This document shows, in pieces, positions 1,872 through 33,193 of a stretch of 35,858 nt of DNA. Below the pieces are notes generated by a model, which saw only the letters and a program-made list of their open reading frames with translations, did not search any database and was not told where the DNA came from. Source of the stretch: an uncultured archaeon (GTDB lineage Archaea > Asgardarchaeota > Lokiarchaeia > Sigyniarchaeales > SOKP01); NCBI GenBank assembly GCA_964388035.1, contig CAYLZE010000044.1, positions 1,949 to 37,806 of the forward strand, in the 5' to 3' direction. Every line of letters starts with the position of its first letter. The stretch's first letter is position 1. Both the position numbers and the translations under genes were made by a program.

Positions 1872-3548
1872 ATGACTCAAGAAAATCTAAACGAGAAAAA
1901 AGCATCAGGGTCCTCGAGCGAGAAGGTAAATTCGTTAATTTCTATTTTGAAAAATTCACGGGATTTAGAAAGAAAGGAAGAAATTATCAATCAATTACTA
2001 AAATTACGTGATAAGGATTATCTTGCTGAACTAAAGAATTTATATTTAAGCGAATCTTTTTCAAGAATTAAGATTCAATTAATTGAGTTGATTTCAAGGT
2101 TATATTTGAGCGAAGGATTTGACTTTTTAACGAGCCAATATAAGCATGAGAAGGATTGGAAAGTACGAAAAAAGATCATAGAAACGATTGAGTTAGAAAA
2201 TAGCGAGATTGCAATTCCTTTTTTAATCGAAGCTTTAAAGGATAATAATATAGAATCTAAACGAGCCGCAATAATGGAATTGGGGCAATTGAAAGCGAAT
2301 GATGCCTTAGAGCCTTTATTAATCATGTTACAATATGGAAATAGTGAAATTTATCACGATATTATTAATACCATTATAAAAATATGCAAGAACGGAGAAC
2401 TTCAGGTGATTTTGAGGCATGCGGAGACTTCTAACATCTATATTAAAAGAGCGATTCCCCTCATTTTAGGACAATTAAAAGATGAGGGTGCTTTTGAGGT
2501 TCTAATTGGTTTACTTAAAGACTCTGACAAAGAGGTCAGAAAGACTGCCATAAAAGCTCTTAAAAGTATCATCGATTTGAGAAAGGTTGGTCATATTGCC
2601 CAATTGATTAATGATGAAAATTTAGAGGTCAGGAAAGAAGCAATTAAGGCCTTAGGTGATTTGGGAGCATTAAAAGCCATTAATCCCTTATTAGATCTCC
2701 TAAAAGATGGAAAAGCAGTCATTAGAAGTCTCGTAATTAAAGCCTTGGCTAAATTATTCAAAAAGACAGGTACGCATGAAGAAGTTCATAAAATCTTAGA
2801 AAAGCGAAATTCAACTTTGCGAAGGGGTGCTATCAAATTATTGGGATTAATTGGAGATCACGAGGATATATCACGACTGCTTCCTTTTTTTACCAGTAAA
2901 ATTACTCAAATAAGAAATAATGCTTTTAATGCGATTTTAAAAATTGCAAAAAAGCAAGAAAATAAGGAGAAAAGTATAATAATAATCTTAGAGTCTTTAA
3001 ATTCGGATAAATGGCAAATTCGAAAATATTGTGTAAAATTGTTAAGCAAGATCGGAAATGAAAATATTATTGAGGCCTTGTTTTATTTATTGGGAGATAA
3101 AAGCGGAGAAGTAAGAAAAGCTACCACGCAAACTTTAGCAAAATTCGGTAACGATAAAGTAATTGAAATCGCCAGACAATTCGTGGATGATAAAGCGTGG
3201 AAAATTCGACGGACGGCGGTAAAGCTTTTAGTAAAAATTGGCACCGAAGAAGCTCTTTCTCCCTTGATTTCTTGTTTAAGCGATGAGGATATTTATGTAA
3301 AACGGTGGGCCATCAAGGGTTTAGGACAATTGCAATCGGTTTCTGATTTAGAACCCCTCACTACCATGATAAAAGATAAGGATCCAAAAGTTCGTATAAT
3401 GGTCATTAAAGCTTTGAATGAAATTGGTGGGGATCAAGTAGTTCCTTTTCTAATAGAAGCGCTCGGAGATGACTTGTATGAAATTAAGAGGGAAGCAGAA
3501 AAAGCTTTGGAGCAAATAGATACGAATTGGATGGAAAAATATTTATAG
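1872..3548 (+). CDS. HEAT-repeat (PBS lyase HEAT-like) protein
   Basis: Many ~31-aa repeats of the type LxxLLxDxxxxVRxxAxxALGxLG over the whole length. Confidence 0.92.
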   Translation: MTQENLNEKKASGSSSEKVNSLISILKNSRDLERKEEIINQLLKLRDKDYLAELKNLYLSESFSRIKIQLIELISRLYLSEGFDFLTSQYKHEKDWKVRKKIIETIELENSEIAIPFLIEALKDNNIESKRAAIMELGQLKANDALEPLLIMLQYGNSEIYHDIINTIIKICKNGELQVILRHAETSNIYIKRAIPLILGQLKDEGAFEVLIGLLKDSDKEVRKTAIKALKSIIDLRKVGHIAQLINDENLEVRKEAIKALGDLGALKAINPLLDLLKDGKAVIRSLVIKALAKLFKKTGTHEEVHKILEKRNSTLRRGAIKLLGLIGDHEDISRLLPFFTSKITQIRNNAFNAILKIAKKQENKEKSIIIILESLNSDKWQIRKYCVKLLSKIGNENIIEALFYLLGDKSGEVRKATTQTLAKFGNDKVIEIARQFVDDKAWKIRRTAVKLLVKIGTEEALSPLISCLSDEDIYVKRWAIKGLGQLQSVSDLEPLTTMIKDKDPKVRIMVIKALNEIGGDQVVPFLIEALGDDLYEIKREAEKALEQIDTNWMEKYL

Positions 3549-3717: not shown

Positions 3718-5433
3718 ATGGAATTAGACGAAAGTATCTTGATGTTTAAAGAAGAAGCCCGGGGGCTAATAAATAATATTGAAGAAAATATCATAAAATT
3801 TGAAAAAGACCCTACTAATTTAAAAAGTGTGGAAGACTTATATTTTGTTTTTAATGGATTATCTTCCTTAATAAGCATGTTAAACATGGCAAATATAGCA
3901 AATTTTTGCCGTCAAGTAGAAAAATCCTTAGAGAAAATAAAAAGTAAAAAATTATCTGATAATAAAGTCGAAGATTTTTTGAATTTCATGTTTTCCAATT
4001 TAAGCGTGTTGCAAAAATTTTATGATAATATTCTAAAGGGAGAGATAGAAGATATTCTTCCTCAAGAATTAGAATTTCTTCATCAAAAATTGGATGATTT
4101 TGAGCGAGAATATCAAATAACCTTTATTGAGCCGATTCCTTATGAAAAGATTAGTTCTACAATTGTAGGAAAAAGTTGTTATAATATACTGATTCGCATT
4201 AAAGAAAGTTGCAAATTTAAAAAAGTACGCTTATTTTTTATTTTTCGAGCATTAAACAATGTGGGGAAGATCCTTTATAGTATTCCAGAACCCTCAAAAT
4301 TGGAAAATGGTGATTTTGAGTTCGAATTTGAGGTGTTTTTTATTTCGGAAGAAACAGAGTTCGAGATCAATAAAATATTGGATGAAATTCTAGAAATAGA
4401 GAATAAATTCATAAAAAAGATAGAGAAGGAAAAATTCAAAACTATAATTCAAGATTTTAGTCAGGAAATTCAAGAAAAGAATGCAGAAATTAATAAAAAA
4501 TTGGAAGAAAAAGAAACTCAAGCTATTAACGATGGAGATATTACTTCCCTCATCACAAGGATTATTCCAGAAGAAGTGGAAGAGATTCAAAAGGATAGAA
4601 CTAAGATCTTTTATAAGATCTATGTCCGCGTCAAATTAAAATGCAAATTTATGAAATTAAGGCTTTTTTTAGTCCTAAGAACCTTGAAATCTCATGGTGA
4701 AATCCACTGGACGATTCCACCACCTTCCACTTTAGAAAAAGGAGATATTGGGCTTGATTTTGAAGTGTATTATGTTAGCAAATTAAAAAAGAATATGATT
4801 ATCGATAATATTGAAAAGGTTAAAGATATCGTGAATATTTCAATTATAGAAATAAATCCCCTTGATTATAAAAAAATTATTTCGAAATTTATTCCCAAAA
4901 CTGAAATTAAGCAAGTTGGAACTCAAGTTTCAGATGTATCCTCAAAAACAAATGAGAAGTTTGGTTTAGTTCAAGAAAATCATTTAAATTCGCTCAAGGT
5001 AAACAATATTGGAATTCTTCACAATGAACCAATGACTCATGATAATAGTAAAGCACCCATGATTATCTACACCGATAGCATATTTTCTGTCTCAAACAAA
5101 ATATTTTTACCAAATACTCAATTTATCGATCTAATTTTGCATGAAAAGCGAGAAACAGTATTTTGCTGCTCTAAACAAATAGATACCCTTGAATTTTATC
5201 TTTATGTGGTAAAAGATGGTGTTTTTTTCGTTACTAGCGCTTCAGAAAATAACGATGTATTCAAGGAGTTCTTTAACATTTACGAAGGCGGATTTAGCAG
5301 CTTTATAGAGTTTTTAGACTCGAGAAAATACGGTATTGAAACGAGTTTCGATTATATTAGATTTAAGAAAAGTGATTTTTATAGTTCAGATATAAACTCT
5401 TATAAAAAATACTTAGAAACCCAAAAATATTAA
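3718..5433 (+). CDS. CheA-like protein: degenerate Hpt (P1) plus two P2 domains plus unknown C-terminal domain, no kinase
   Basis: FKEEARGLINNIEENIIKFEKDP (P1 helices); two copies of Y.I.(I/V)R(I/V)K..CKF.K.RLF....L...G.I....P.PS.LE.GD....FEV (P2-like, ~4180-4420 and ~4612-4860); no HATPase boxes. Confidence 0.75.
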   Translation: MELDESILMFKEEARGLINNIEENIIKFEKDPTNLKSVEDLYFVFNGLSSLISMLNMANIANFCRQVEKSLEKIKSKKLSDNKVEDFLNFMFSNLSVLQKFYDNILKGEIEDILPQELEFLHQKLDDFEREYQITFIEPIPYEKISSTIVGKSCYNILIRIKESCKFKKVRLFFIFRALNNVGKILYSIPEPSKLENGDFEFEFEVFFISEETEFEINKILDEILEIENKFIKKIEKEKFKTIIQDFSQEIQEKNAEINKKLEEKETQAINDGDITSLITRIIPEEVEEIQKDRTKIFYKIYVRVKLKCKFMKLRLFLVLRTLKSHGEIHWTIPPPSTLEKGDIGLDFEVYYVSKLKKNMIIDNIEKVKDIVNISIIEINPLDYKKIISKFIPKTEIKQVGTQVSDVSSKTNEKFGLVQENHLNSLKVNNIGILHNEPMTHDNSKAPMIIYTDSIFSVSNKIFLPNTQFIDLILHEKRETVFCCSKQIDTLEFYLYVVKDGVFFVTSASENNDVFKEFFNIYEGGFSSFIEFLDSRKYGIETSFDYIRFKKSDFYSSDINSYKKYLETQKY

Positions 5434-6912: not shown

Positions 6913-8157
6913 ATGACAATCGATAAGAAACGATTTAAATATCAGCCCATCTCGCTAAAAGATATTTTAAGAGAAATGAAAAAAAACATCGATTTCATGA
7001 TTGATTTGGCTTATAGTGCTATAAAATTTGGAAGTAAGGAGATTGCTGATGAAGCATATAAAATCGAAGGTCGGATTCATGAACTCACTTTTCTTCTAAA
7101 CTTACAAATTATTTTAGCTCAACCTGGAGGGTTTAAAGATGCTAAGAAACTTGAACCAATCATTGTTATGGGATATTGTATCGATAAAATTAGTGATGCT
7201 TTATCCGATATTGCTCGCGTGGTTTATATTAATAACGATATTTTTGAATTTACCCAGCTTTTTTGGGACTCAGTTCCCGAACCTATCGTAAAAATCACAG
7301 TAAAGCCAGGTTGTCAATTAGTTGGAAGGCCACGCAAAAATATTCATTTTAGGTCCATGCATGGGGTGGATTTAATTGCAATTCGCCGGGGGGAAAAGTG
7401 GTTATTTGATAAAGAAGAAAAAATCCAAGAAAGTGATATTTTAATTGTAAAAGGTGAAATTTCTCCTATTCTAGAGCTTAAAGAATTATGTCAAGATGAG
7501 GATCCTATTTCCTTTGATTTAGAGAGAAGTGTAGACAAACCATATTTCGATCTTAGTAATCCAGATATCTTAGAAGGGTTAGAAGAATTGAAGAAGAATT
7601 ATATTTTGATTACAGATCTCTCTGAAACAATGATAGAACTGGCCCTAGCCGCACTTTTTTTCAATAATTATGAAGTGGCAGAAGATATTTTTGAAATGGA
7701 AGAATTAATGGATGGTTTGAACATTGCATTTGAAAAAGATTTGCTGGAAATGACCCCCTTACTTGAAAATCCAAAAGATTTAACCGGTATTATGCGGATA
7801 GTTTTTTCTTGTGAATTAATTTCTGATGCAGCGGCAAACATTGCGGAAAATATAATTAAAGGATTCAAACCTCATCCGATATTTCAAGAGGCTATAACAG
7901 AAACGGATGAAATAGTTGTGAGAGAAACATTATCTCAAGATTCATATTTTAAGGGTAAGACCTATATAGAACTTCAAGATAAGCGATATAAACGGGGATT
8001 TCACATTATCGCCCTAAAAAGAAAAGATAAGTGGATCTATCGCTTCAAACCTAACTTTCTCTTTAAGGAAGGAGATTTAATAATAGGGTGGGGCCCAAAT
8101 GAAACGGTAGATTCCTGGCGACGCTGTGTGAATCCGGAAAAATTCCGAGAGGATTAG
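6913..8157 (+). CDS. Tandem (PhoU-like + TrkA_C/RCK_C) x2 protein (COG3273-like), putative transporter regulator
   Basis: MIDLAYSA/MIELALAA helical repeats with ISDA; DLIAIRRG and HIIALKRK..FKEGDLII TrkA_C motifs. Confidence 0.85.
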   Translation: MTIDKKRFKYQPISLKDILREMKKNIDFMIDLAYSAIKFGSKEIADEAYKIEGRIHELTFLLNLQIILAQPGGFKDAKKLEPIIVMGYCIDKISDALSDIARVVYINNDIFEFTQLFWDSVPEPIVKITVKPGCQLVGRPRKNIHFRSMHGVDLIAIRRGEKWLFDKEEKIQESDILIVKGEISPILELKELCQDEDPISFDLERSVDKPYFDLSNPDILEGLEELKKNYILITDLSETMIELALAALFFNNYEVAEDIFEMEELMDGLNIAFEKDLLEMTPLLENPKDLTGIMRIVFSCELISDAAANIAENIIKGFKPHPIFQEAITETDEIVVRETLSQDSYFKGKTYIELQDKRYKRGFHIIALKRKDKWIYRFKPNFLFKEGDLIIGWGPNETVDSWRRCVNPEKFRED

Positions 8158-8853: not shown

Positions 8854-11550
8854 ATGATAGAGAAGGAAGAGTCTGGAGGAGCGTTTGGAAAATGGTTTAT
8901 TGATGAAAATCACCTGCCTGCTTATAAATATACTTGTAATCAATATACTGACCCTCTCGCAAAAACGCCCACAACTTATGGATTTTCTATCGATCATTTC
9001 CATCAAATTGGAAATGATAATATTACAGCTACCGTACATAATGGAGGTCATGTGCAATTTTTGGAATCTAGCCGAGGCATACAATGGCTTACTTTCCAGA
9101 AAAAAGCAAGGGGCAAACTTGGTGGAGGAATAGCAATTGTAAATGAGGAAAAAGAGAAAGATTTCATCTCAGATTTATACGATAAAAATTCTCATCATAC
9201 ATTTGAATTATTTGACCGAATTTTCGGAATAGGTTATTTTCGAAAAGAGATTAAAGTTCACGAGATAGGAGTAGTTCACGACATCATTGCTCCTTTTTCT
9301 AATGATCCGGTGCTAATCTCTGAAATAACCGTTATAAATGAATCGCAAAAAGAAGTAAAAACCTTAACAATAATAGATTTCTGGGATATTTATATACATC
9401 ACGTATTAAAATCTTTAATCGTAACTTGGCGAAATAGAAAGAAATATGGGCACTCAAAGATATTAAATGTTGCGGGGAGACTCTTAAAGTTAATCCAAAG
9501 ACTTTCTTTAACTGATACTGAAAGTTCTAGAAAGAGATTTGACGATAAATTCAAGTTTAATTTTGAATATGATCCCAATTTGAACGCCTTAATATTAAGA
9601 CCGTATTATAGTTCTAAAATTCCAGTTAGAAAAGAACAAGAGGCAAAACACAATTATTATCCAAAAAGCATTTTTTTAGCAATGATTCAAGGTGATGCAG
9701 AGAGGATCTTTTTTGAACAAGAGAAAATTATTAAAAAAAACCATTTTGAAATTAATTGGAGAAATGCAGATTCGCCTGACAAAAATATTCGCAAGAATTC
9801 CATTAATAATCCGTGTCTCGCAATTGGCACCCGCATTACTCTTAAACCTGGTGAAGTGAGAAAAATTAGCTGTATATTTGGTTATGAAGAGAAAAAAAAA
9901 ATTTCTTCATTCTTATCCACGTATGAACATCTATGTAAAAATGATTCCCTTTCGAAATGGAATGCTCAACAATGGAAAAAATCAATGATTTTCATAGATC
10001 TTGAAGATTTTCCTTGGTTAGAAAGAGAAAGCAAGTGGCATTCTTATTATGTGCGGAGCGCTTGCTATTTTGATGAATATTGGAGAAAACATAAATTTCC
10101 CCAAGGGTCCGTGTATGAATTTGGTCACGGGTTTGATGGAGCAATTAGAGATTTCATCTTGTACTTATATTCCATCATTTTTATAAATCCGAAATTAGCA
10201 AAAGAATATCTTACTTACGCTCTGTCTTTCATGACCCATGAGGGTAAATTACCCTATGCAATTCACGGATTTGGTCAAACATTCACGGGTGGTCCGCACT
10301 CTAAACCTTCTGATTTATATCTCTTTTTAATATGGGGGATTCTTCAATATATCTATTCAACTCGAGATTTTGATTATTTAAAAGAAGAAATTCCATTTTA
10401 TCCAAAAACACAAAAACAAAGTTCCACAGTATTAAAAAGATTAGAAATGGCGTTAAATTATCTTGTTTCTGATAAAGTTGGATTTGGATCTCATGGGCTT
10501 CTTAAGTGCAATGATGGTGATTGGTCTGATGGAATCTCTCTAATGGTTAAAAATAGGAAAAAATTCATAGAAAATGGAGAATCAACTTTTAATTCAGCAT
10601 TTGCCGTGTATATTATCCCTAAATTAATTGAAATGCTCAAAGGAAGAAAAGTTAATGCAATTAAAGCATATTGGGATTATTATTCTCATTTAAAGGATGC
10701 AATATTAAAATCTTGGAATGGAAAATGGTTTTATAGAGGCTGGGACGGTATTGGAAATCCTATTGGTAATGATAACCTTTTTTTAGAACATCACGTATGG
10801 ATTTTGCTTGCTAGCTTTTTAGAAAAGGAACAAAATGAGAATTTAATAAATGAAATATATAATCGACTGGACAAGCCTTCCCCAATTGGGCAATATATAT
10901 CATTTCCAGCTCAAAGAACAAAATATAATGTTCTTCCTAAAGGTTGGGATGTCAATGGAGGAATATGGCACGCAATTAATTCTTTACTAACATGGGCATA
11001 TTCAGTGCATGATCCTGAAAAAGCGTTTCAGTCGTTAGTAAAAAATTCTTTACATCAAAGAGCCGCAATTTATCCTCACATTTGGTATGGAATTTGGAGT
11101 GGTCCAGATTCTTACATTGCGGATTATGCTGAAAATTCAGGGCAAGCTTTTTATCATCTTCCAACACCCATGTGCGACTTTCCCATCATGAATCTAAATC
11201 TTCATGCTTGCTATCTTCTTTCCCTTATTAAATTAGCGGGATTTGAAGAACAACCAAATGGCATCGTGATTAAATCAAGATTACCAATTCAAAATTTTTC
11301 ATTTCATTCACCCCTATTTTCCATAATAAAGTCATCTACTACATGGGAGATTGAATACAATCCTTTTATCTGTAAAGGAGTTAACTTAATAATTGAACAG
11401 CCTTCTTGGTGGAATGAGAAGTGTAAAATATCAATAGATGGTAAGTTGATTGAAAATACGTTAAATAAATGGGAACTAGTTGATAATAATATTTATGTAC
11501 ATGTTTTAGAAAATCTTGATAATATTAAACTTATATTAATAAAATCCTAA
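8854..11550 (+). CDS. GH94-like glycoside phosphorylase/hydrolase (beta-sandwich plus (alpha/alpha)6 barrel)
   Basis: GAIRD, SDLYLFL, GDWSDG (catalytic Asp region), ESTFNS, WNGKWFYRG and NGGIW motifs. Confidence 0.75.
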   Translation: MIEKEESGGAFGKWFIDENHLPAYKYTCNQYTDPLAKTPTTYGFSIDHFHQIGNDNITATVHNGGHVQFLESSRGIQWLTFQKKARGKLGGGIAIVNEEKEKDFISDLYDKNSHHTFELFDRIFGIGYFRKEIKVHEIGVVHDIIAPFSNDPVLISEITVINESQKEVKTLTIIDFWDIYIHHVLKSLIVTWRNRKKYGHSKILNVAGRLLKLIQRLSLTDTESSRKRFDDKFKFNFEYDPNLNALILRPYYSSKIPVRKEQEAKHNYYPKSIFLAMIQGDAERIFFEQEKIIKKNHFEINWRNADSPDKNIRKNSINNPCLAIGTRITLKPGEVRKISCIFGYEEKKKISSFLSTYEHLCKNDSLSKWNAQQWKKSMIFIDLEDFPWLERESKWHSYYVRSACYFDEYWRKHKFPQGSVYEFGHGFDGAIRDFILYLYSIIFINPKLAKEYLTYALSFMTHEGKLPYAIHGFGQTFTGGPHSKPSDLYLFLIWGILQYIYSTRDFDYLKEEIPFYPKTQKQSSTVLKRLEMALNYLVSDKVGFGSHGLLKCNDGDWSDGISLMVKNRKKFIENGESTFNSAFAVYIIPKLIEMLKGRKVNAIKAYWDYYSHLKDAILKSWNGKWFYRGWDGIGNPIGNDNLFLEHHVWILLASFLEKEQNENLINEIYNRLDKPSPIGQYISFPAQRTKYNVLPKGWDVNGGIWHAINSLLTWAYSVHDPEKAFQSLVKNSLHQRAAIYPHIWYGIWSGPDSYIADYAENSGQAFYHLPTPMCDFPIMNLNLHACYLLSLIKLAGFEEQPNGIVIKSRLPIQNFSFHSPLFSIIKSSTTWEIEYNPFICKGVNLIIEQPSWWNEKCKISIDGKLIENTLNKWELVDNNIYVHVLENLDNIKLILIKS

Positions 11551-22617: not shown

Positions 22618-23544
22618 ATGAATGCATATTATCGTGCGCTCTTAAAAAAGAATAAGAGTGAGCAAGAAGATTTATCCTTTACAAAGTGTTGTAATAACCA
22701 AATCATTGAATCGCGCGATGGTAATAAAGTTTGCCTTAACTGTGGAATGATTTTTGAAAGGACGTATGTTGGGGATGAACGGAGGGCTTATACCATGGAA
22801 GAAATAAATAATAGACGACGGACAGAACCTCGCTGGAGGAGTTTCGGTCCGAGAACCATGCTCCCTACTACGAAAAAAGATTCAAAAGGTAGATCAATTG
22901 GTCCTAAGGAACAATCCTTATTTTTACGCTTGTCAAAAATACAGAATTCCTTAATTTCAAGCATTGAACGAAACTTTTGGGAAGCCAAGCCTAAATTATC
23001 CATGCTCACATCTCGATTAAACATTCCGGAATACATAACAGAAACCGCGTGGAAGATTTATAGCATTGTTGCCAAAAAGAAAATGACAATGGGAAGATCG
23101 ATTGATGGTTTTATCGCGGGGGCTCTATATGTAGCGATACGAGTACATGCTTTTCCTCGCCTTTTGGATGAGGTGTGTGAAGTAGCTTTAATTCCAAGAA
23201 GAAATGTTATTCAAAGTTTAGGAATGATTAATAGACATATTCTTCCATGCTTAGGTTTAAAATATTCTCCGATTACTGCTGAAACTTTGATTTTTCGATT
23301 TGGAAATGAATTGCATGTACCCATGAAAATTCAAAAAAATGCAATCAATCTTCTCGTACATGCGTCCAAAAAGGGATTAGATCGGATCGGAAAAGACCCT
23401 AAAGGACTGGCAGCGGCATGTATTTATATCTCTGCGAGAAGTGCTTCAATAAGAATTACACAATCACACGTTGCGGTAGTGGCAAAAATAACCGAAGTCA
23501 CATTACGTTCTCGGATTAAACAAATTAAAAAAGTATTGAAATAA
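22618..23544 (+). CDS. tfb: Transcription initiation factor IIB (TFB) paralog
   Basis: Zn ribbon CC..VCLNCG, E.RAY B-reader, cyclin repeats GRSIDGFIAGALY and GKDPKGLAAACIY, HTH TEVTLRSR. Confidence 0.92.
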   Translation: MNAYYRALLKKNKSEQEDLSFTKCCNNQIIESRDGNKVCLNCGMIFERTYVGDERRAYTMEEINNRRRTEPRWRSFGPRTMLPTTKKDSKGRSIGPKEQSLFLRLSKIQNSLISSIERNFWEAKPKLSMLTSRLNIPEYITETAWKIYSIVAKKKMTMGRSIDGFIAGALYVAIRVHAFPRLLDEVCEVALIPRRNVIQSLGMINRHILPCLGLKYSPITAETLIFRFGNELHVPMKIQKNAINLLVHASKKGLDRIGKDPKGLAAACIYISARSASIRITQSHVAVVAKITEVTLRSRIKQIKKVLK

Positions 23545-24367: not shown

Positions 24368-25393
24368 ATGAAAGAGTCCGATCATGAAAAAAATGGAAAG
24401 GTAGAATGTACCCATAAAAATGTTAAGGAAGAAGCTGGGTTTTTAGTTTGCCAAGATTGTGGATTGATTCTCTCAGATCAAGTAGTTTTTGATAGAGACT
24501 CATATACAAGTGATTTTTATGGACCTTCTCAATTGGAATACGAGAAAAAGATTTCATTGAAAGATTCAAAAGCGAAGCAAGATCCCATCATAAAAGAAAA
24601 ATATGATCACCTTATTACTCTTGACAAATGGTTTCGAGATTCAAAATCCAGTTTCGGAGAACAACGAAAGACTTTAGATTTATTAAAAAGTTATAATATA
24701 GGGCAGAACATAGATCAAACAAAATATCAAGAAATTAAGGAACGATATCTTCGATATAATCGAAAAACTCGTAAAACTTATCAAAACATGGTAATCATTT
24801 TCTTAGCAATCGTATGGTTGGAAATAAAAGATACCACAAATATTAGAATTGAGCAATACATTCACGCATGCAATGAATTGGGGCATAAGATTAATAAGAA
24901 AATGTTAAATAAAGCCATGGAAAAAATAAAGAAAACGGAAGAAAAGTGGTATAGATACCAAGGAGATAAAGTAGAGGGTAATGCACAGCTAATTCGAAAT
25001 AAGCTCGAAAGTGATATTAAAAACAAGATTAAAATCCTTTTTCAAAAAAATCTTAATGATATTTCCTTTGGGGAAGTTAAACACGAATTTTCTGATTTAA
25101 AAGAATTCGAGCAATTGAAGATTGAAATGCAATTGCTATTGGATGATCTTTTAAATAAAATATCTTATCAAGACATAAAGAATCTCAATTATAAAGCCTT
25201 CACCGCGGGTCTTTTATATTATATTGGACAAGCACTCGAAAATGAAAGGAGTAAGATTTTTACCCAAAATCTTATCGAATCCCTATCTAATTTTTCTGCC
25301 ACAACGATAAGAAAGAAATACAAAATTCTAACGAACTTATTAGGCGATCCTACTTCGATTTCAGACATGGAATTGAAAGAAAAGCAATTATAG
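24368..25393 (+). CDS. Highly divergent TFIIB-like protein (Zn ribbon plus cyclin-like folds)
   Basis: CTH..LVCQDCGLI Zn ribbon; C-terminal FTAGLLYY..FTQ..IE.LS.FSATTIRKKYKIL resembles TFB repeat 2 and its HTH. Confidence 0.68.
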   Translation: MKESDHEKNGKVECTHKNVKEEAGFLVCQDCGLILSDQVVFDRDSYTSDFYGPSQLEYEKKISLKDSKAKQDPIIKEKYDHLITLDKWFRDSKSSFGEQRKTLDLLKSYNIGQNIDQTKYQEIKERYLRYNRKTRKTYQNMVIIFLAIVWLEIKDTTNIRIEQYIHACNELGHKINKKMLNKAMEKIKKTEEKWYRYQGDKVEGNAQLIRNKLESDIKNKIKILFQKNLNDISFGEVKHEFSDLKEFEQLKIEMQLLLDDLLNKISYQDIKNLNYKAFTAGLLYYIGQALENERSKIFTQNLIESLSNFSATTIRKKYKILTNLLGDPTSISDMELKEKQL

Positions 25394-25479: not shown

Positions 25480-26403
25480 ATGAATGAAAAAACGACTCAG
25501 AAACCCAGTAAAATAAAGCATTTTCTGAAAAAATATGGAGCGATCATTTTTATCGCCATTATAGTTGTTATTTTTGCTTTATTAATCATCTCCCGAATTA
25601 ATTTTGGTCAATGGTTAGCAAACCTGGTGGTATCATTTTATAATACCTATGGAGATTTTGGAATTTATCTGGGAGTGTTTCTAATTTCAATATTTGGCAA
25701 CTTTACCGTGATATTTCCCGTACCATACACGATTGCGCTGATTGTGATCTCTGCTGTCGTGCCCGGAGTTAATCCTATATTTCTTGGGCTAGTTGGTGCA
25801 ACGGGAGCCAGTTTAGGAGAGACTTCCGCATGGTTAATAGGTCGTGGCTCGAAAGAAATGATTGGGGATTCCAAATCGATAGAAAGAATGAAAACATATG
25901 TAGATGCAGGTTGGGCCCCTTTACTAATATTCATTTTTGCTGCAACCCCTCTACCCGACGATGCCTTCTTGATTGTATTAGGAATCGCACAATATAGCAT
26001 TTTAAAAGCACTGTTTTATTGCTTTTTAGGGAAATTCGTTTTATGCTTTTTATGCAGCGCGCTCCCTATCTGGTTTGCAAATACTTCTATTGGCAACTTT
26101 CTCTTTGGGTTATTCGGAATTAATCTAGAAGCTGCACGCACGGGGATAATACCTCCAAGTTCTACAGCAGATTTAATTCAAAGTTCTGTTGTATGGTCTG
26201 CAACAATTATTATCATATTTTTATTTGTTTACATAGATTGGGGCAAGCTACTTCGGAAAATAGTTAAAGAGAAACCCAAAAATGAACAAACAATTGGAGA
26301 AGAAACCGTTAATACTAATTGTTTAAATTTCATTTTTCAAAAAATTGTCAATAGATTTCTGATATTTAAGCAAGGATTTAATATCTTTAGAGTGTTTTCT
26401 TGA
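25480..26403 (+). CDS. DedA/VTT superfamily membrane protein (VMP1/YqaA-like)
   Basis: GNFTVIFPVPY re-entrant segment, GATGASLGETSAWLIGRG, FAATPLPDD..LG and FLGK. Confidence 0.88.
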   Translation: MNEKTTQKPSKIKHFLKKYGAIIFIAIIVVIFALLIISRINFGQWLANLVVSFYNTYGDFGIYLGVFLISIFGNFTVIFPVPYTIALIVISAVVPGVNPIFLGLVGATGASLGETSAWLIGRGSKEMIGDSKSIERMKTYVDAGWAPLLIFIFAATPLPDDAFLIVLGIAQYSILKALFYCFLGKFVLCFLCSALPIWFANTSIGNFLFGLFGINLEAARTGIIPPSSTADLIQSSVVWSATIIIIFLFVYIDWGKLLRKIVKEKPKNEQTIGEETVNTNCLNFIFQKIVNRFLIFKQGFNIFRVFS

Positions 26404-26556: not shown

Positions 26557-29415
26557 ATGAAAACTTCTACCATGGAATATTATTCACAATCACCCGAGGA
26601 TTTAGCTAGCGAATTTCGCACGGATTTAAGGAATGGATTGAAAATTAAAGATTTACACCAGCTTTATAAGAAATATGGATATAATGAATTATCCAAAATT
26701 AAAAAATCAATATGGAGAATCTACTTTTCTCCTATTTTCAATTTCCTTATCATTATTTTATTTGCTACTGCTGTTATTGTTAGTATTTTAGGAGAACCTC
26801 AGACAACGATAATTGTATTTTCCATGTTAATAATAAATGGCATTGCAGTCATAATACAGCAGAAAAGGGCAAGAAATACTCTAAATTCGTTAAGAAGTGA
26901 ATCTACATTAACTTCTAAGGTTATTCGGGATGGAATTATATTTGAAATTCCCATGAGAGAATTGGTTCCGGGGGATCTCATTTTATTATCTCAGGGGAAT
27001 AAAATTCCAGCAGATGCTAGAATTATTGAATTATCTAATTTATCCGTTGACGAGGCACCACTAACGGGAGAAAGCGAACCCGTAGAAAAGAAAATTGAGA
27101 TTTTAGAACAATCGAATTTAGCTATTCACGAGAGATTAAACATGATATTCATGGGAACATATGTCAACACGGGGCTTGCAAAAGCAATTGTTGTTCGTAC
27201 CGGAATGAAAAGTGAAATTGGTAAAATTGCTGGAAAGTTGAATCAATTGGGGTTAAAAGATTTGCTTCTTACTAAAAAATTAAATAGATTAGGATATTTT
27301 TTAGGAATTATTGTAGTTCTTGCATTGTTTTTTCTCATTATTTTTAAAACTTTCATTTTGATTGCTCAAGAGCAATTAAATCCTACAGCATTCGCCCATA
27401 TAATGGATAGTTCTATATTAAGAGCAATTGGCATTCTTCCTATTAATTTACCATTACTTTGCACGTTAGTCCTTATCACGGGAGTACTTGGCATGGCTCA
27501 ACAAGGAGTAATAGTTAAAAACCTTTCCTCTATTGAAACTCTTGGCAGAATATCCGTGATCTGTTCCGACAAAACGGGTACGATAACAAAAAATGAGATG
27601 ACGGTAGAAAGATTTTGGATAAATAACAAGGAATATAAAGTAACGGGTGCGGGCTATGATGAATACGGGGAAATTCTAGGGGACAATCAAGCAATAGATA
27701 TTGGTAATAATCTTACCCTTCAAATGTTTTTAGACGCGATTATTATTAATAATTCTGCAAATTTAGCTTATAAAGACATTAGAATAAGACAGCAAGAGAA
27801 GTTGGTGGAAGAAGCAGTTCGATTTGCAGAGGGCTCCCCGACCGAAGCAGCACTCCTAGTTTTGGCTGAAAAAATGGGAACAATACCTTATGATATTAGA
27901 CGAAAATATACGATTCTACGGGAATACTCGTTTAATTCAGAGATGAGAAGAATGAGCATCATCGGACAATTATTCTCAGACGATAAAAAAAATTTCCTTT
28001 TTGTGAAAGGTGCACCCGAAATCATTCTCAAATTATCAACGAATATTGAGATTGATGGTAACCTAAAAGAATTCGATTTATCTTTTAAAGAAAAAGTTCT
28101 TGAATTGATCAATTCAAGGGCCTCAGAAGGATATAGAATCATTGCAGTGGCTTATAAGCCAATTCCATCGATTCAAAACATGCATAGAGATATATTAGAA
28201 ACGAATTTGATTTTTCTTGCTTTTTTAAGCATCATGGATCCTCCGCGTGAAGGAGTAAAAGAGGCAGTTCTTGCTTGCAAGTTAGGAGGAATAAAAGTAG
28301 TAATGATCACGGGAGATCATCCTAATACAGCAAAAACTATTGCACTGAATACAGGCATATGGGAAGAGGGTGACATTTTTATAGAGGAGCCAGATTTAAA
28401 CCACGTATCAAGAGAGGATTTTAGAAAAGCCTCCGTTTTTGCGAGAGTAGAACCCCATAATAAAGAAACTATCGTTAGAAAATATCAAGAGGAAAAACAT
28501 ATCTGTGCCATGACAGGTGATGGGATCAATGATTCTTTAGCCTTGAAGGTGGCGGATGTTGGGATTGTTCCGGGAATAACAGGAACTATCGTTGCAAAAG
28601 AAACTGCAGATATTGTCATTTCCGATGATAATTTTGTTTCAATCGAGAAAGGTATAAGAATAGGAAGAGGGTTATTTTCAAAAATTAGAGTTATAATTTA
28701 TTTTTTTATTTGCGTGAATTTAGCAGAAGGAATAATTTTTTTCTTGTTTGAATTTCTTCCTTATTTTCAGTTATTTTCTTCTGAATGGCAACATATTTAT
28801 ATTTATGGAATTGCTCATTCATTACCTTCCATAGCTTTAGTGTTGGATAAACTTCCAAAGGATATAATGGGAGAACCTCCCCGAAAAAATGAAGAACTTC
28901 TCAGTAAAAACATGTGGAAATTGTTATTCTTTAATGCATTTTTGATAGGTGTTGGATTATTCTTGATTATTCAATTTACATTAGCGGGTCTTTTTCCTTT
29001 AAACGAATGGAATCTTAATCCGAAACTAAGCTTCATTCCTCCCGATTCAACTCAACAACAGTTATTAGAACAAAAAGCGAGAACCATGTTAATCACTACC
29101 ATTTTTATTATTGAGACCACCTTCGTATGGTCCTTTCGAAGACCTAATAAATCTTTCTATAAAAGCATTAAGGAGGAGTTCTCCTTCAATTTAATGTTTA
29201 TTTGCTTATTTACTTTAGGCATCCACTTGCTGGTTATCAATTTTTCTTATTATTTGAATAGCGTTTTATATTATGTTTATCACTTGGATATTAACTTAAA
29301 TTTAATCTTTTTAAGTCTCCAAGATTGGGGAACATGTATATTATTTAGCTTACCGGGAATTTTTGGAATCGAGCTCTATAAAAACCATGTCAGGAGAAAA
29401 AAGGTGTATTTTTAA
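26557..29415 (+). CDS. P-type ATPase, P2A-like scaffold with atypical PINLP TM4 (paralog 1)
   Basis: LTGES, CSDKTGTIT, KGAPE, DPPR, MITGD and TGDGIND; ~10 TM. Confidence 0.95.
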   Translation: MKTSTMEYYSQSPEDLASEFRTDLRNGLKIKDLHQLYKKYGYNELSKIKKSIWRIYFSPIFNFLIIILFATAVIVSILGEPQTTIIVFSMLIINGIAVIIQQKRARNTLNSLRSESTLTSKVIRDGIIFEIPMRELVPGDLILLSQGNKIPADARIIELSNLSVDEAPLTGESEPVEKKIEILEQSNLAIHERLNMIFMGTYVNTGLAKAIVVRTGMKSEIGKIAGKLNQLGLKDLLLTKKLNRLGYFLGIIVVLALFFLIIFKTFILIAQEQLNPTAFAHIMDSSILRAIGILPINLPLLCTLVLITGVLGMAQQGVIVKNLSSIETLGRISVICSDKTGTITKNEMTVERFWINNKEYKVTGAGYDEYGEILGDNQAIDIGNNLTLQMFLDAIIINNSANLAYKDIRIRQQEKLVEEAVRFAEGSPTEAALLVLAEKMGTIPYDIRRKYTILREYSFNSEMRRMSIIGQLFSDDKKNFLFVKGAPEIILKLSTNIEIDGNLKEFDLSFKEKVLELINSRASEGYRIIAVAYKPIPSIQNMHRDILETNLIFLAFLSIMDPPREGVKEAVLACKLGGIKVVMITGDHPNTAKTIALNTGIWEEGDIFIEEPDLNHVSREDFRKASVFARVEPHNKETIVRKYQEEKHICAMTGDGINDSLALKVADVGIVPGITGTIVAKETADIVISDDNFVSIEKGIRIGRGLFSKIRVIIYFFICVNLAEGIIFFLFEFLPYFQLFSSEWQHIYIYGIAHSLPSIALVLDKLPKDIMGEPPRKNEELLSKNMWKLLFFNAFLIGVGLFLIIQFTLAGLFPLNEWNLNPKLSFIPPDSTQQQLLEQKARTMLITTIFIIETTFVWSFRRPNKSFYKSIKEEFSFNLMFICLFTLGIHLLVINFSYYLNSVLYYVYHLDINLNLIFLSLQDWGTCILFSLPGIFGIELYKNHVRRKKVYF

Positions 29416-29549
29416 TATATTTTTTTTATTTCCAAGAACCAAGCTTATTTTTTAAATTTAAAGATTATGGTGTGGGTTTGAACAAAAAAACTCAATTAAA
29501 TTTGGATTTCAAGAAATCTTTTTTTCTAATACTATGTAGTAATGTAATC

Positions 29550-29807
29550 TCAACTTATTGAATCATCTGTCGGATTATTCTTTTCCATCTGGATTGATTT
29601 AATCATTTGTTCGCCCTTAATTTTTCGCTTGAGCTTTTCAATCGCAGGTAAATTTAATCTGATTTCTAATCGTGCAACTCTTTTCTCAATTTCGTCAATT
29701 TTATCTAGTAGATTTTCAAAGTTTTGAACTCTTTCTAAAATGTCTTCCAAATCATTAATCTTTAATTTTAATTTCTCTAAATCTATACTATCTAATTCCA
29801 ACGACAT
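29550..29807 (-). CDS. Small coiled-coil hypothetical protein
   Basis: 85 aa with heptad L/I pattern (LEKLKLKINDLEDIL..IDEIEKRVARLE). Confidence 0.7.
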   Translation of the reverse strand: MSLELDSIDLEKLKLKINDLEDILERVQNFENLLDKIDEIEKRVARLEIRLNLPAIEKLKRKIKGEQMIKSIQMEKNNPTDDSIS

Positions 29808-30298
29808 TTGTTTCTTCCCGTATATAAAGGATGTTATTTTATATTACACAAATATAATATATAAAGATTGTTATCTAAATGCGAAAAACCTCAAATTTAA
29901 ATCGACAACCAGCTAATAAAATAAATAGTTTTTTAACTAATTTGTTTTTTGTTTCAGTCCAAATTTCCATCTTTCCGCAATTTTACTCTCTAATGGAAAT
30001 TAATCTATCTTGCCATCATTTTTACAAATATTTTATTGTTAATTAATCATTATTTTAGTGCAATCATACAATCATGAAATGATTAATAATAAAATACCTT
30101 AGAAGGGTTTTAATTGGGTAAAATGAAAGTTAAAAATTAATAATTGAGACATATTCCATGGACATTTTTAAAATCTTGAAAGATTACTATTTTTTGCAAA
30201 ACCATTTGGAGAAGGTTAATTTTATTATTAGTTGCTTTTATTGTATAGATATATAAAAAAATCATAAAATCAACACAATTAAAAACTTAACACATTGA

Positions 30299-33193
30299 AT
30301 GCATATGGCGAGTATTAATGAAAAATATTATCAGTCGAGTATCGAAACGCTAAGCAAGCAATTGGACACGGATATTTATAATGGATTAAGTACTGAAGAA
30401 GCTAATTTAAGATTAGAGCAGTATGGTTACAATGTACTACCAGATGTTTCAAAGGGGTTTATAAAAATCTATTTAGCTCCACTCTTCAACTGGTTAATTG
30501 TTATATATCTGGTTTGTTCAATGATCATGCTCGTTGCCAGCTTGTTAGGTGAGGAAGGTAACTTTACCATGATAGTCCTTACTCTAGGCATAGTAGGGGT
30601 GAACTGCTTAATTGCTATTTTCCAGCAATATAGAGCTACAAAAAAGCTTGAAGCATTAAAACAATTAACAGCGCCTACCACCATGGTTATTCGAGACGGA
30701 AAGAAACAGGAAGTTTCTACAAAAAATATTGTCATTGGAGATATCTTAATAGTAAATCAAGGAGATAAAGTGGCTGCAGACGCCAGAATAATAGAATCTT
30801 CTAATCTTGAAGTGAATGAAGCATCTCTTACGGGAGAGAGTGAACCCGTGAGAAAACTTAATGATGGGAAACCTTTAAACTCTGGAGAGGAACTTCCAAT
30901 TTCAGAACAAAAAAATTCCGTTTTTTTTGGAACCTTTATTACAATGGGAAATGGTAAAACTCTCGTGGTAAAAACGGGAGCAAATACGGAGATTGGAAAA
31001 ATCTCCGCAGGTTTAGAAGAAGCGGGTTCAAGTGAAATACCGATTAGAGAAAAAATGAATAATTTTGGGAAATGGCTTGGATTAGTTATTGTGGCACTTT
31101 GGATTGTAACCTTAATTTTAAAATTAATCACCACTGGCGAGTTAAATATAGCTGGAAGCCTTAATGCTGCTCTTGATTTGATGCCCATTAATCTCCCTTT
31201 ATTAGTAACTATCATCCTTCTTACAGGAGTACTTGCGATGGCTCATTATGGGGTGATCGTGAGGAATATCGCATCGGTAGATAGTCTAGGTAGAATTAGT
31301 GTGGTCTGCTCGGATAAAACAGGTACTTTAACCAAAAATCAAATGAGCGTTCAGCATGTATGGTCTAACGGATCATTTTTTAAAGTTACGGGAAGTGGTT
31401 ATACTCCTGAAGGAGAAATCATTAAAATTGATGATAGTAAAAATCCTGAATATGTCAAGCATATAGAAAATTTTCCGCAATTAAAGCTTCTCCTCATCTC
31501 AGGATTTTTAAATAATAATTCCGCATTAGTTAAAAATTCAATTAAAGCTGGAAATAAACTAATTGATACATGGGATGTAATCGGTTCTCCTACGGAGGGA
31601 GCATTACTGGTATTATTCCAGAAAGGCATGGGGGATTATCTTCTTCAAGAATTTGGGGCAGTGAAAGAATTTCCCTTCACTTCAGCCTTAAAACGAATGA
31701 CTAAAATTTTTAGAAAAGAAGAAAAATATTACTCATTCACCAAAGGAGCAAGCGAAGTACTAATTCCACGGTGTACTAGGGTTTTAATTAAGGATGCAAG
31801 CATTGAATTTACCGATCAATTAAAAAATGAGGTAATGGCAAAAATTGATGAATATGCTGGAAAAGGGTATCGTATATTGAGCTTTTGCTACAAGGAATTT
31901 TACATGATGCCCTCTGATAGTGATGAATTAAGAGACCAATTCGAATCAGAAATGACATACTTAGGATTTGTAACGATTTTAGATCCTCCACGAGAAGGGG
32001 TAAAAGAATCTGTAGAACAATGTCATAATGCTGGTATTGAAGTGATCATGATAACCGGAGATTCTCCCGCAACGGCAAGATCCATATCAGAACAAATTTC
32101 CATCATAAAAAATGAAGATGAAAAAGTTGTCGAGGGAAAAGATATTGAAAGTACTCTTAATTCCCCAGAGTTTACTAAAATAAAGGTATTTGCAAGAGTT
32201 TCTCCCGAACATAAGGAAATGATAATTAAAAAATATCAGGAATTAGATCAAGTGATTGCGATGACAGGAGATGGAGTAAATGATGCACTAGCATTGAATT
32301 TGGCAGATGCCGGGTTGAGCATGGGGATTGCGGGAACGGATGTAGCTAAAGAGGCATCAGACATGGTAATATCAGACGATTCCTTTAATTCTATTGTAAA
32401 AGGTATTCATCAAGGAAGAGGAATTTTCACTAAAGTAAGGGGGGTGGTATTTTTTTACATTTGCATTAATGTATTCGAAGGTTTAGTCGCATTTATCTTG
32501 GCAGTTATTTTAGGATATCCATGGTGGCAAGATCCTTCCTCTGCTTATTACATGCAGTGGATATTTTTGTCCATATCACTTCATCTTTTTCCGGGCTTAA
32601 TTTTAACATTTGATACGATCTCTGACGATGTCATGAAAGAGAAACCGAGAGACGAGGAAGAAATCCTTTCCTTAAACACCATCATTCTGATGTGCATTTA
32701 TGGGGGCCTTTTATCCTTATCGATGATCATTACCTACTTCGTTGCATTAACCGGAGCATATCCCGTCTTTCCATTAAACCATGAATTGGGATTCTGGAAT
32801 CAAGGCTATTTATATACTTCTGAGACAATGAAATTAACCCCTACTGTCAAGTTAAATGAAGCAAAAGCCTTAACAATGCTAATGGTGACGCTTTTTTTCT
32901 GTGAGTCCTTCTTAGTACTTCAGATTCGACGCCCAAATAAATCTCTGATTGCAAGCATAAGACACGACAGTAATAAATTCATGTATATCTTGTTAGGCTT
33001 ATTATTTTTTGCTCTGCTTAGCTTCATGTACATTCCAGGATTTCAACTCACTCTAGCTGCAATTGGACTTAATTTCATGTTCATGCATTTGACTGCTCTT
33101 GATTGGTTAGTCTGTTTTTCCATCTCTTTAATTTGTATTGGCGCCTTTGAAGTGATAAAATATTATATCAGAATAAAAAAAATTATTTTATAA
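30299..33193 (+). CDS. P-type ATPase, P2A-like scaffold with atypical PINLP TM4 (paralog 2)
   Basis: LTGES, CSDKTGTLT, KGASE, DPPR, MITGD, TGDGVND and GTDVAKEASD; ~10 TM. Confidence 0.95.
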   Translation: MHMASINEKYYQSSIETLSKQLDTDIYNGLSTEEANLRLEQYGYNVLPDVSKGFIKIYLAPLFNWLIVIYLVCSMIMLVASLLGEEGNFTMIVLTLGIVGVNCLIAIFQQYRATKKLEALKQLTAPTTMVIRDGKKQEVSTKNIVIGDILIVNQGDKVAADARIIESSNLEVNEASLTGESEPVRKLNDGKPLNSGEELPISEQKNSVFFGTFITMGNGKTLVVKTGANTEIGKISAGLEEAGSSEIPIREKMNNFGKWLGLVIVALWIVTLILKLITTGELNIAGSLNAALDLMPINLPLLVTIILLTGVLAMAHYGVIVRNIASVDSLGRISVVCSDKTGTLTKNQMSVQHVWSNGSFFKVTGSGYTPEGEIIKIDDSKNPEYVKHIENFPQLKLLLISGFLNNNSALVKNSIKAGNKLIDTWDVIGSPTEGALLVLFQKGMGDYLLQEFGAVKEFPFTSALKRMTKIFRKEEKYYSFTKGASEVLIPRCTRVLIKDASIEFTDQLKNEVMAKIDEYAGKGYRILSFCYKEFYMMPSDSDELRDQFESEMTYLGFVTILDPPREGVKESVEQCHNAGIEVIMITGDSPATARSISEQISIIKNEDEKVVEGKDIESTLNSPEFTKIKVFARVSPEHKEMIIKKYQELDQVIAMTGDGVNDALALNLADAGLSMGIAGTDVAKEASDMVISDDSFNSIVKGIHQGRGIFTKVRGVVFFYICINVFEGLVAFILAVILGYPWWQDPSSAYYMQWIFLSISLHLFPGLILTFDTISDDVMKEKPRDEEEILSLNTIILMCIYGGLLSLSMIITYFVALTGAYPVFPLNHELGFWNQGYLYTSETMKLTPTVKLNEAKALTMLMVTLFFCESFLVLQIRRPNKSLIASIRHDSNKFMYILLGLLFFALLSFMYIPGFQLTLAAIGLNFMFMHLTALDWLVCFSISLICIGAFEVIKYYIRIKKIIL

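Follow-up and report, generated by a model that had tools for sequence, protein, structure and literature searches.

Here we describe two P-type ATPase genes, pump A and pump B, from a 35,858-nucleotide stretch (the window) of contig CAYLZE010000044.1, assembly GCA_964388035.1, of an uncultured Lokiarchaeia archaeon. Sequence comparison identifies the two pumps as ancient paralogues of an undescribed subfamily that probably derives from the P2A cation pumps, designated here as the His clade to highlight a histidine in transmembrane helix (TM) 6 at the position of the calcium ligand D800 of SERCA. The side chains of Ca2+ site II (E309, N796 and D800) are absent from both pumps. Site I retains N768, E771 and E908, has lost T799 and has gained the histidine at 800, leaving a predicted Asn-Glu-His-Glu cluster. 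Databases label the members Ca2+-transporting ATPases, yet four of the calcium ligands are missing from this subfamily, which roughly three in four Asgard genomes encode. The pumps are probably, though by no means surely, single-site exporters of a small non-calcium cation, either a transition metal or H+/Na+.

Our literature search, which covered few subscription papers, did not find a description of the family. In a 2023 review of P-type ATPases, no such family is listed, P4 and P5 are described as confined to eukaryotes, and more prokaryotic families are expected (PMC10654040). An earlier note on the window, made from its letters alone, had proposed an uncharacterised subfamily, and this proposal is supported.

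Two intact pumps with an altered ion site

Pumps A and B are encoded on the same strand, separated by 884 bases, and share 38% identity (Table 1). Both carry the full set of superfamily motifs (DKTGT, TGES, KGA, DPPR, TGD and GDGxND, with KGAxE and TGDGxND as the longer forms) and score 264 and 282 bits against TIGR01494 (P-type ATPase), for which the cut-off is 62. The ATP engine, comprising the nucleotide-binding (N), phosphorylation (P) and actuator (A) domains, is intact in both.

Table 1. Coordinates in the window of the two pump genes, their diagnostic motifs and the adjoining DedA gene
Feature	Position	Strand	Remarks
Pump A	26557..29415	+	952 aa, His-clade P-type ATPase, 10 TM helices; open reading frame
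Pump B	30299..33193	+	964 aa, His-clade P-type ATPase; open reading frame
TGES	A 27064, B 30830	+	motif check
TM4 PINLP of A	27439..27453	+	Ile296 = SERCA E309, Asn297 = G310
TM4 PINLP of B	31184..31198	+	Ile297, Asn298
CSDKTGT phosphorylation motif of A	27562..27582	+	Asp338
CSDKTGT phosphorylation motif of B	31307..31327	+	Asp339
TM5 VNLAE of A	28714..28728	+	Asn721, Glu724 = SERCA N768, E771
TM5 INVFE of B	32465..32479	+	Asn724, Glu727 (SERCA N768, E771)
TM6 His754 of A	28816..28818	+	SERCA D800 position
TM6 His762 of B	32582..32584	+	SERCA D800 position
TM8 Glu853 of A	29113..29115	+	SERCA E908; IIE motif starts 29107
TM8 Glu869 of B	32903..32905	+	SERCA E908; FCE motif starts 32897
DedA/VTT-domain membrane protein	25480..26403	+	occasional pump neighbour

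The motifs and positions given in the earlier note were all correct when every coordinate was rechecked, and its manual alignment to SERCA was confirmed in three ways: the phosphorylated Asp lies 42 residues after the TM4 Ile; HMMER alignment to Listeria LMCA1 pairs PINLP with PEAL and the TM6 His with the Asp of NDSLP; and the family profile aligned to SERCA2 places the His on the Asp of TDGLP, the TM5 Asn and Glu on SSNVGE and the TM8 Glu on TIEM. In this register, N796 is replaced by Tyr or Ser and T799 by Ala or Leu. Pump B additionally has a B-specific Asp293, three residues ahead of the TM4 Pro.

An AlphaFold model of A (mean predicted local distance difference test score, pLDDT, 87; predicted template modelling score 0.81) shows the full P2 fold with ten helices; an earlier model had a pLDDT of 68 and its fold search was not used. 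The best structural matches were LMCA1 (Z 35.1), SPCA1 and PfATP4, with P4 structures at Z 25-28 and 17-20% identity; since Z depends on conformation, these scores show the fold only. Among sequence profiles, neither P2A cut-off was reached (TIGR01116, 429-430 bits against 703; TIGR01522, 422-446 against 798), nor was that of TIGR01523, the profile of the P2D ENA pumps.

Conservation of the rebuilt site

All 119 aligned members have E771 and His800, 113 have N768 and 115 have E908; at the positions of N796 and T799, hydrophobic or small residues prevail. The E309 position is Ile, Val, Leu, Trp or Phe in every member examined, with Trp or Phe in basal members. Across 122 sequences of B type or related to it, P[ILV]N[IL]P, the TM5 Asn and Glu, the TM6 His and the TM8 Glu do not vary. 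Conservation across relatives excludes sequencing error or decay as the cause of the PINL and His changes, in agreement with the earlier argument that they are under selection.

The acids at the cytosolic entrance (SERCA D59 and E109, at the ends of TM1 and TM2) are Asn and Gln in the Asgard branch, and outer TM6 carries conserved aromatic and polar residues in the family alignment. Orthologues of A conserve Arg289 and His746, and those of B conserve Asn289, Asp293, Gln731 and Trp754, all in outer TM4, TM5 or TM6; these conserved differences suggest that A and B may have two cargo preferences.

Variation in TM4 was also seen within the family: one group (f13: L087, L089, L094, L110, L123 and L129) reads PISIP, PITIP, PIAIP or PIMIP. 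The source genome encodes a third member outside the window (contig C74:7111-9999), with PVNLP and the TM6 His; it is 55% identical to A and is a recent A-type duplicate.

Taxonomic distribution

With E 1e-25 as the limit, which the ordinary P2A pumps of the source genome fail to reach, the TM5-10 region of A has matches in 299 of 400 Asgard genomes. Of 50 matches sampled across families, all have the TM6 His, and the 49 that cover TM4 all read P(I/V)x(I/L)(P/V), x being mostly Asn. Named members carry Loki-, Hel- and Odinarchaeota labels, with two in Ca. Lokiarchaeum ossiferum. When 1.84 billion representatives were searched with a profile, about 80 clusters scored E 1e-30 or better, ahead of ordinary PEGL pumps; the ESM Atlas yielded generic Cation_ATPase_C clusters only.

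At the boundary of the family lies a divergent branch with PWSFP, PWNFP, PFNFP or PVNFP in TM4 and the same TM6 His. It includes Loki and Hel records, together with one genome whose neighbour genes cluster with Thermoplasmatota proteins. Of 37 genomes from one Thermoplasmatota class, 15 carry a member of this branch, which was not found in the other genomes among 301 sampled from that phylum. Strict Asgard specificity is thereby excluded.

Also, two records titled Nanopelagicaceae (L036) and Aerophobetes (L053) carry an A-B pair of Lokiarchaeia type, preceded in L036 by the usual genes; both are probably misbinned or mislabelled.

The source assembly measures 5.5 Mb at 33% G+C, and its close homologues bear Promethearchaeota (Lokiarchaeota) labels. 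In it, 15 P-type ATPases carry DKTG[TS][LIV]T, including three PEGL pumps with the TM6 Asp, one MgtA-like pump and two P1B pumps. Each of the 42 Asgard genomes checked has one or more other P2-type pumps that score better. Because other P2 pumps coexist in every genome checked, the His-clade pump is not the ordinary Ca2+ pump of these genomes, and a new cargo is likely. The earlier statement that A and B are not Ca2+ pumps is borne out in so far as canonical Ca2+ pumps are meant. A putative Ca2+ ATPase has been reported in all five proteomes (PMC7997004), and His-clade members may have been counted among the calcium pumps of Asgard archaea.

Phylogenetic position

Trees were built with P2A, P3A, P3B, P1B and eukaryotic P4 references, the P4 sequences coming from metagenome contigs; P5 and eukaryotic P2B, P2C and P2D (no ENA sequence) were not represented. 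The His clade is monophyletic, with a Shimodaira-Hasegawa-like approximate likelihood ratio test (SH-aLRT) support of 100 and a stem of 0.39, and the Thermoplasmatota branch is basal within it. The position of the clade, among bacterial-type P2A, is weakly supported (SH-aLRT 82-88). A P2A scaffold is indicated by the best profile and fold matches and by over 120 columns in which the clade agrees with P2A but not with P4. The P2A pumps (LMCA1, SPCA1/PMR1 and SERCA) have the same domain layout, ten TM helices and cytoplasmic motifs at about 29% identity; unlike them, the His clade reads PIN(L/I) for PEGL, replaces N796, T799 and D800, has neutral residues at the cation entrance and forms a long-stemmed clade of its own.

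The TM4 series AAIPEGLP, AAIP(W/F)(N/S)FP, xIMPIN(I/L)P suggests a stepwise change from P2A in which the Ile arrived late. Because basal members carry Trp or Phe, the resemblance of this Ile to that of the P4 lipid flippases is probably convergent.

The relation to P4 was scored in several ways. Diagnostic columns shared by the His clade and P4 numbered 11, against 16 for P2A and P4, so that there is no excess. On all columns, a tree forcing P4 and the His clade together scored 22.65 above a short free search (approximately unbiased test, p-AU 0.795). P4 was then placed on each branch in turn with the site columns removed, under the posterior mean site frequency (PMSF) and LG models. The best position was the unresolved base of P2, and that of sister to the whole His clade ranked next (log-likelihood difference 3.6, p-AU 0.39 under PMSF; 2.3, 0.64 under LG). 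PMSF rejected P4 as sister to the Asgard branch alone (p 0.02), whereas LG did not (0.28). The His-clade stem exerted no pull on a P1B control, and the P4-sister signal is carried by few scattered columns. A position of P4 inside the His clade, from an unfinished tree search, lay 20 log-likelihood units below the best on proper scoring and was rejected. With a P4 stem of more than 3 changes per site, and with P5, P2B, P2C and P2D missing from the trees, the sister relation of P4 to the whole clade is neither supported nor rejected.

Searches of other kinds found no true P4 (TIGR01652) in 400 Asgard genomes and no P2C (TIGR01106, strict threshold) in 151, both without a positive control. CDC50 (PF03381), which P4B pumps do not need, had no match in the source genome, likewise without a positive control, and no P4 or P5 reference was present in the viral contigs searched. 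P4 and P5 are without a known prokaryotic source, and the His clade is among the few positions that the data allow for P4.

Cargo and mechanism

The two buried, invariant glutamates suggest that the cargo is a cation, and the histidine, together with the loss of an oxygen ligand, speaks against Ca2+ and for a transition metal or a proton/Na+ relay. In the mechanism that we consider somewhat better than an even bet, one small non-calcium cation would bind in the E1 state at Asn-Glu-His-Glu, trigger phosphorylation and leave on the outer side in E2P. The bulky residue in TM4 would serve as a hydrophobic lid. The histidine would act as ligand and as built-in counter-ion, filling the emptied site and so making dephosphorylation possible. 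A transition metal is tentatively put first as the cargo, the replacement of Asp by His with the loss of one oxygen ligand being the edit expected for conversion of a Ca2+ site to one of Mn2+/Fe2+/Zn2+ type. H+ or Na+, exported through a His-Glu relay, comes second as a possibility held just as tentatively. Whatever the cargo, a P2 pump with a histidine-based site I alone would, if confirmed, represent a new transport chemistry.

Known pumps provide partial precedents. The P2D ENA Na+/K+ efflux ATPases are P2 pumps without E309 and D800 that nevertheless move cations, and one of them, Neurospora ENA1, is an Na+ exporter that reads IPASL and TSGLP there (PMC10779151); unlike the His clade, ENA pumps have ENIAQ in TM5 and other TM5/TM7 acids. 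In the P3A pumps (AHA2, Pma1 and archaeal MJ1226-like proteins), Ile or Val occupies E309 (PMC4937031), the D800 position is titratable and TM2 carries an Asn, as in the His clade; the His clade differs in having His for the TM6 Asp and Asn for the TM5 Arg, and is a separate clade. Both P3A residues are absent from A and B and present in the source genome's own P3A pumps. The P1B-4 pumps (sCoaT and CtpD) have an invariant M6 His that serves as metal ligand or internal counter-ion (10.1101/2021.09.01.458532), a functional resemblance only, as their membrane topology and SPC motif are different.

The four P3A-like pumps of the source genome (C17, C49, C87 and C133) read PVALP or PAALP, with the TM5 Arg and ND in TM6; the function of prokaryotic P3A pumps is unproven (PMC10654040).

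Several points weigh against export of a small non-calcium cation. We know of no P2 pump that works on site I alone, and known single-site pumps keep E309. The de-acidified entrance poorly suits a divalent cation, and no metal or ion clue was found among the gene neighbours at the loci surveyed. Furthermore, one small sub-clade (P0261, P0276, P0280 and P0315) is without the His, N768 and E908, and one family (f16: L102, L107, L108 and L118) has Ile at E908.

The same sub-clade reads PVSIP and has the fewest polar core residues; it may have changed cargo again. The P0276 gene sits among AFOR and NiFe-hydrogenase genes.

The strongest rival, which we hold to be unlikely, is a lipid flippase, either convergent with P4 or its archaeal sister. 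The lipid head group would travel through a TM1/2/4/6 groove past the Ile, bound by backbone amides and the Asn of PIN, with the His in the role of the P4 TM5 Lys and lipid stimulating dephosphorylation. The TM4 pattern P-I-N/S-L/I recalls the PISL of P4 (ATP8A1/2, Drs2 and Neo1), with Ile at E309 followed by a small polar residue, another polar residue three before the Pro, and Asn at N768; some Asgard members read PISIP. Neutralised cation-entry acids, a near-core distribution in Asgard archaea and a DedA gene beside some of the pumps also agree with lipid cargo, as do the ranking of P4 sister directly after the basal P2 node, the absence of such a preference in the P1B control and the outcome on all columns. 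The signatures of P4 are nonetheless missing, as the earlier note had recognised for DGET and the TM5 Lys in denying that these are true P4 pumps: TGES stands for DGET (present in 20 of 20 P4 references), a hydrophobic residue for the TM5 Lys (K873), and Tyr or Ser in A and B for the TM6 Asn (N905). TIGR01652 scores 99-106 bits against a cut-off of 431. Drs2 has a core without negative charges and uses the TM5 Lys and TM6 Asn (10.1101/606061); the His clade keeps acids in its core and has a second Pro in TM4. Basal members read AAIP-W/F-N/S-FP, which makes the Ile, like the polar residue three positions ahead of the Pro, a change that arose within the clade. PINL, read in the earlier note as flippase-like, is not specifically so, since P3A proton pumps and P2D Na+ pumps also have a residue other than Glu there. 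The note's suggestion of lipid cargo or an intermediate towards P4 is weakly supported and of low probability: the tests above do not reject the sister placement, and retention of E771 and E908, the lack of a column excess and the late Ile leave the link to eukaryotic lipid flippases weak. That the His clade is the archaeal sister of eukaryotic P4 and itself moves lipids appears improbable; if true, active P-type lipid flipping arose in the Asgard ancestors of eukaryotes.

Quite improbable, too, is a non-canonical Ca2+ (or Ca2+/Mn2+) pump using site I only, which P2A ancestry and the retained N768, E771 and E908 would fit. Histidine is a poor Ca2+ ligand, all four of the residues E309, N796, T799 and D800 have been lost and canonical PEGL pumps coexist. 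CtpE, which lacks the TM6 Asp, does transport Ca2+ (PMC10654040), but it retains PEGL. We give slightly less credence still to export of a small organic or nitrogenous cation (polyamine, ammonium or methylamine), as in P5B pumps with a non-Glu TM4. An aromatic or aliphatic lid over buried acids and the aromatic and polar residues of outer TM6 would suit such a cargo. TIGR01657 (P5) scores 233-252 bits against a cut-off of 618, the P5 TM4 motif PP(E/A)LP is absent and no neighbour gene points to such a cargo. Decayed or idle copies, or obligate A-B heterodimer halves as the pairing of the genes might suggest, are very improbable, given that all catalytic motifs are conserved in both pumps, most Asgard groups are single-copy, the two Ca. 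L. ossiferum copies are unlinked and the conserved gene order extends beyond the pair.

Gene neighbourhood

In 66 of the 68 A-B loci that have enough flanking sequence, pump A immediately precedes B, and the pair sits inside a longer conserved gene order with TFB, a TFIIB-zinc-ribbon protein, GNAT and DUF362 genes. As these 68 loci are close kin and the wider order is conserved, adjacency is ordinary synteny and no proof of partnership. Several Hod-, Thor- and Hermod-labelled records show the same order; in other Asgard groups, the gene is mostly single-copy with unrelated neighbours.

The DedA gene adjoins the pumps in 11 of 81 loci, in varying position. DedA proteins are tied to lipid movement and also to upkeep of the proton-motive force, and this neighbour therefore leaves the cargo undecided. 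A conserved machine of pump and DedA for lipids is excluded by this frequency and by its occurrence, by clustering, in 0 of 40 wider Asgard loci.

Upstream of the pumps, a 341-residue protein (24368-25393) that weakly matches the TFIIB zinc ribbon (E 0.0014) is conserved in 56 of 81 loci, and lies two genes from a regular TFB (22618-23544). Between A and B, an 85-residue coiled-coil open reading frame (29550-29807, minus strand) has a BLOC1_2 match under the cut-off (E 0.005) and is not conserved there in other loci, where the gap holds varied inserts (DedA, a C_GCAxxG_C_C protein). Elsewhere in the window are a 571-residue protein with two CheA-type P2 domains (3718-5433) beside a HEAT-repeat protein (1872-3548), a PhoU and TrkA_C protein (6913-8157) and an 898-residue GH94-like protein (8854-11550).

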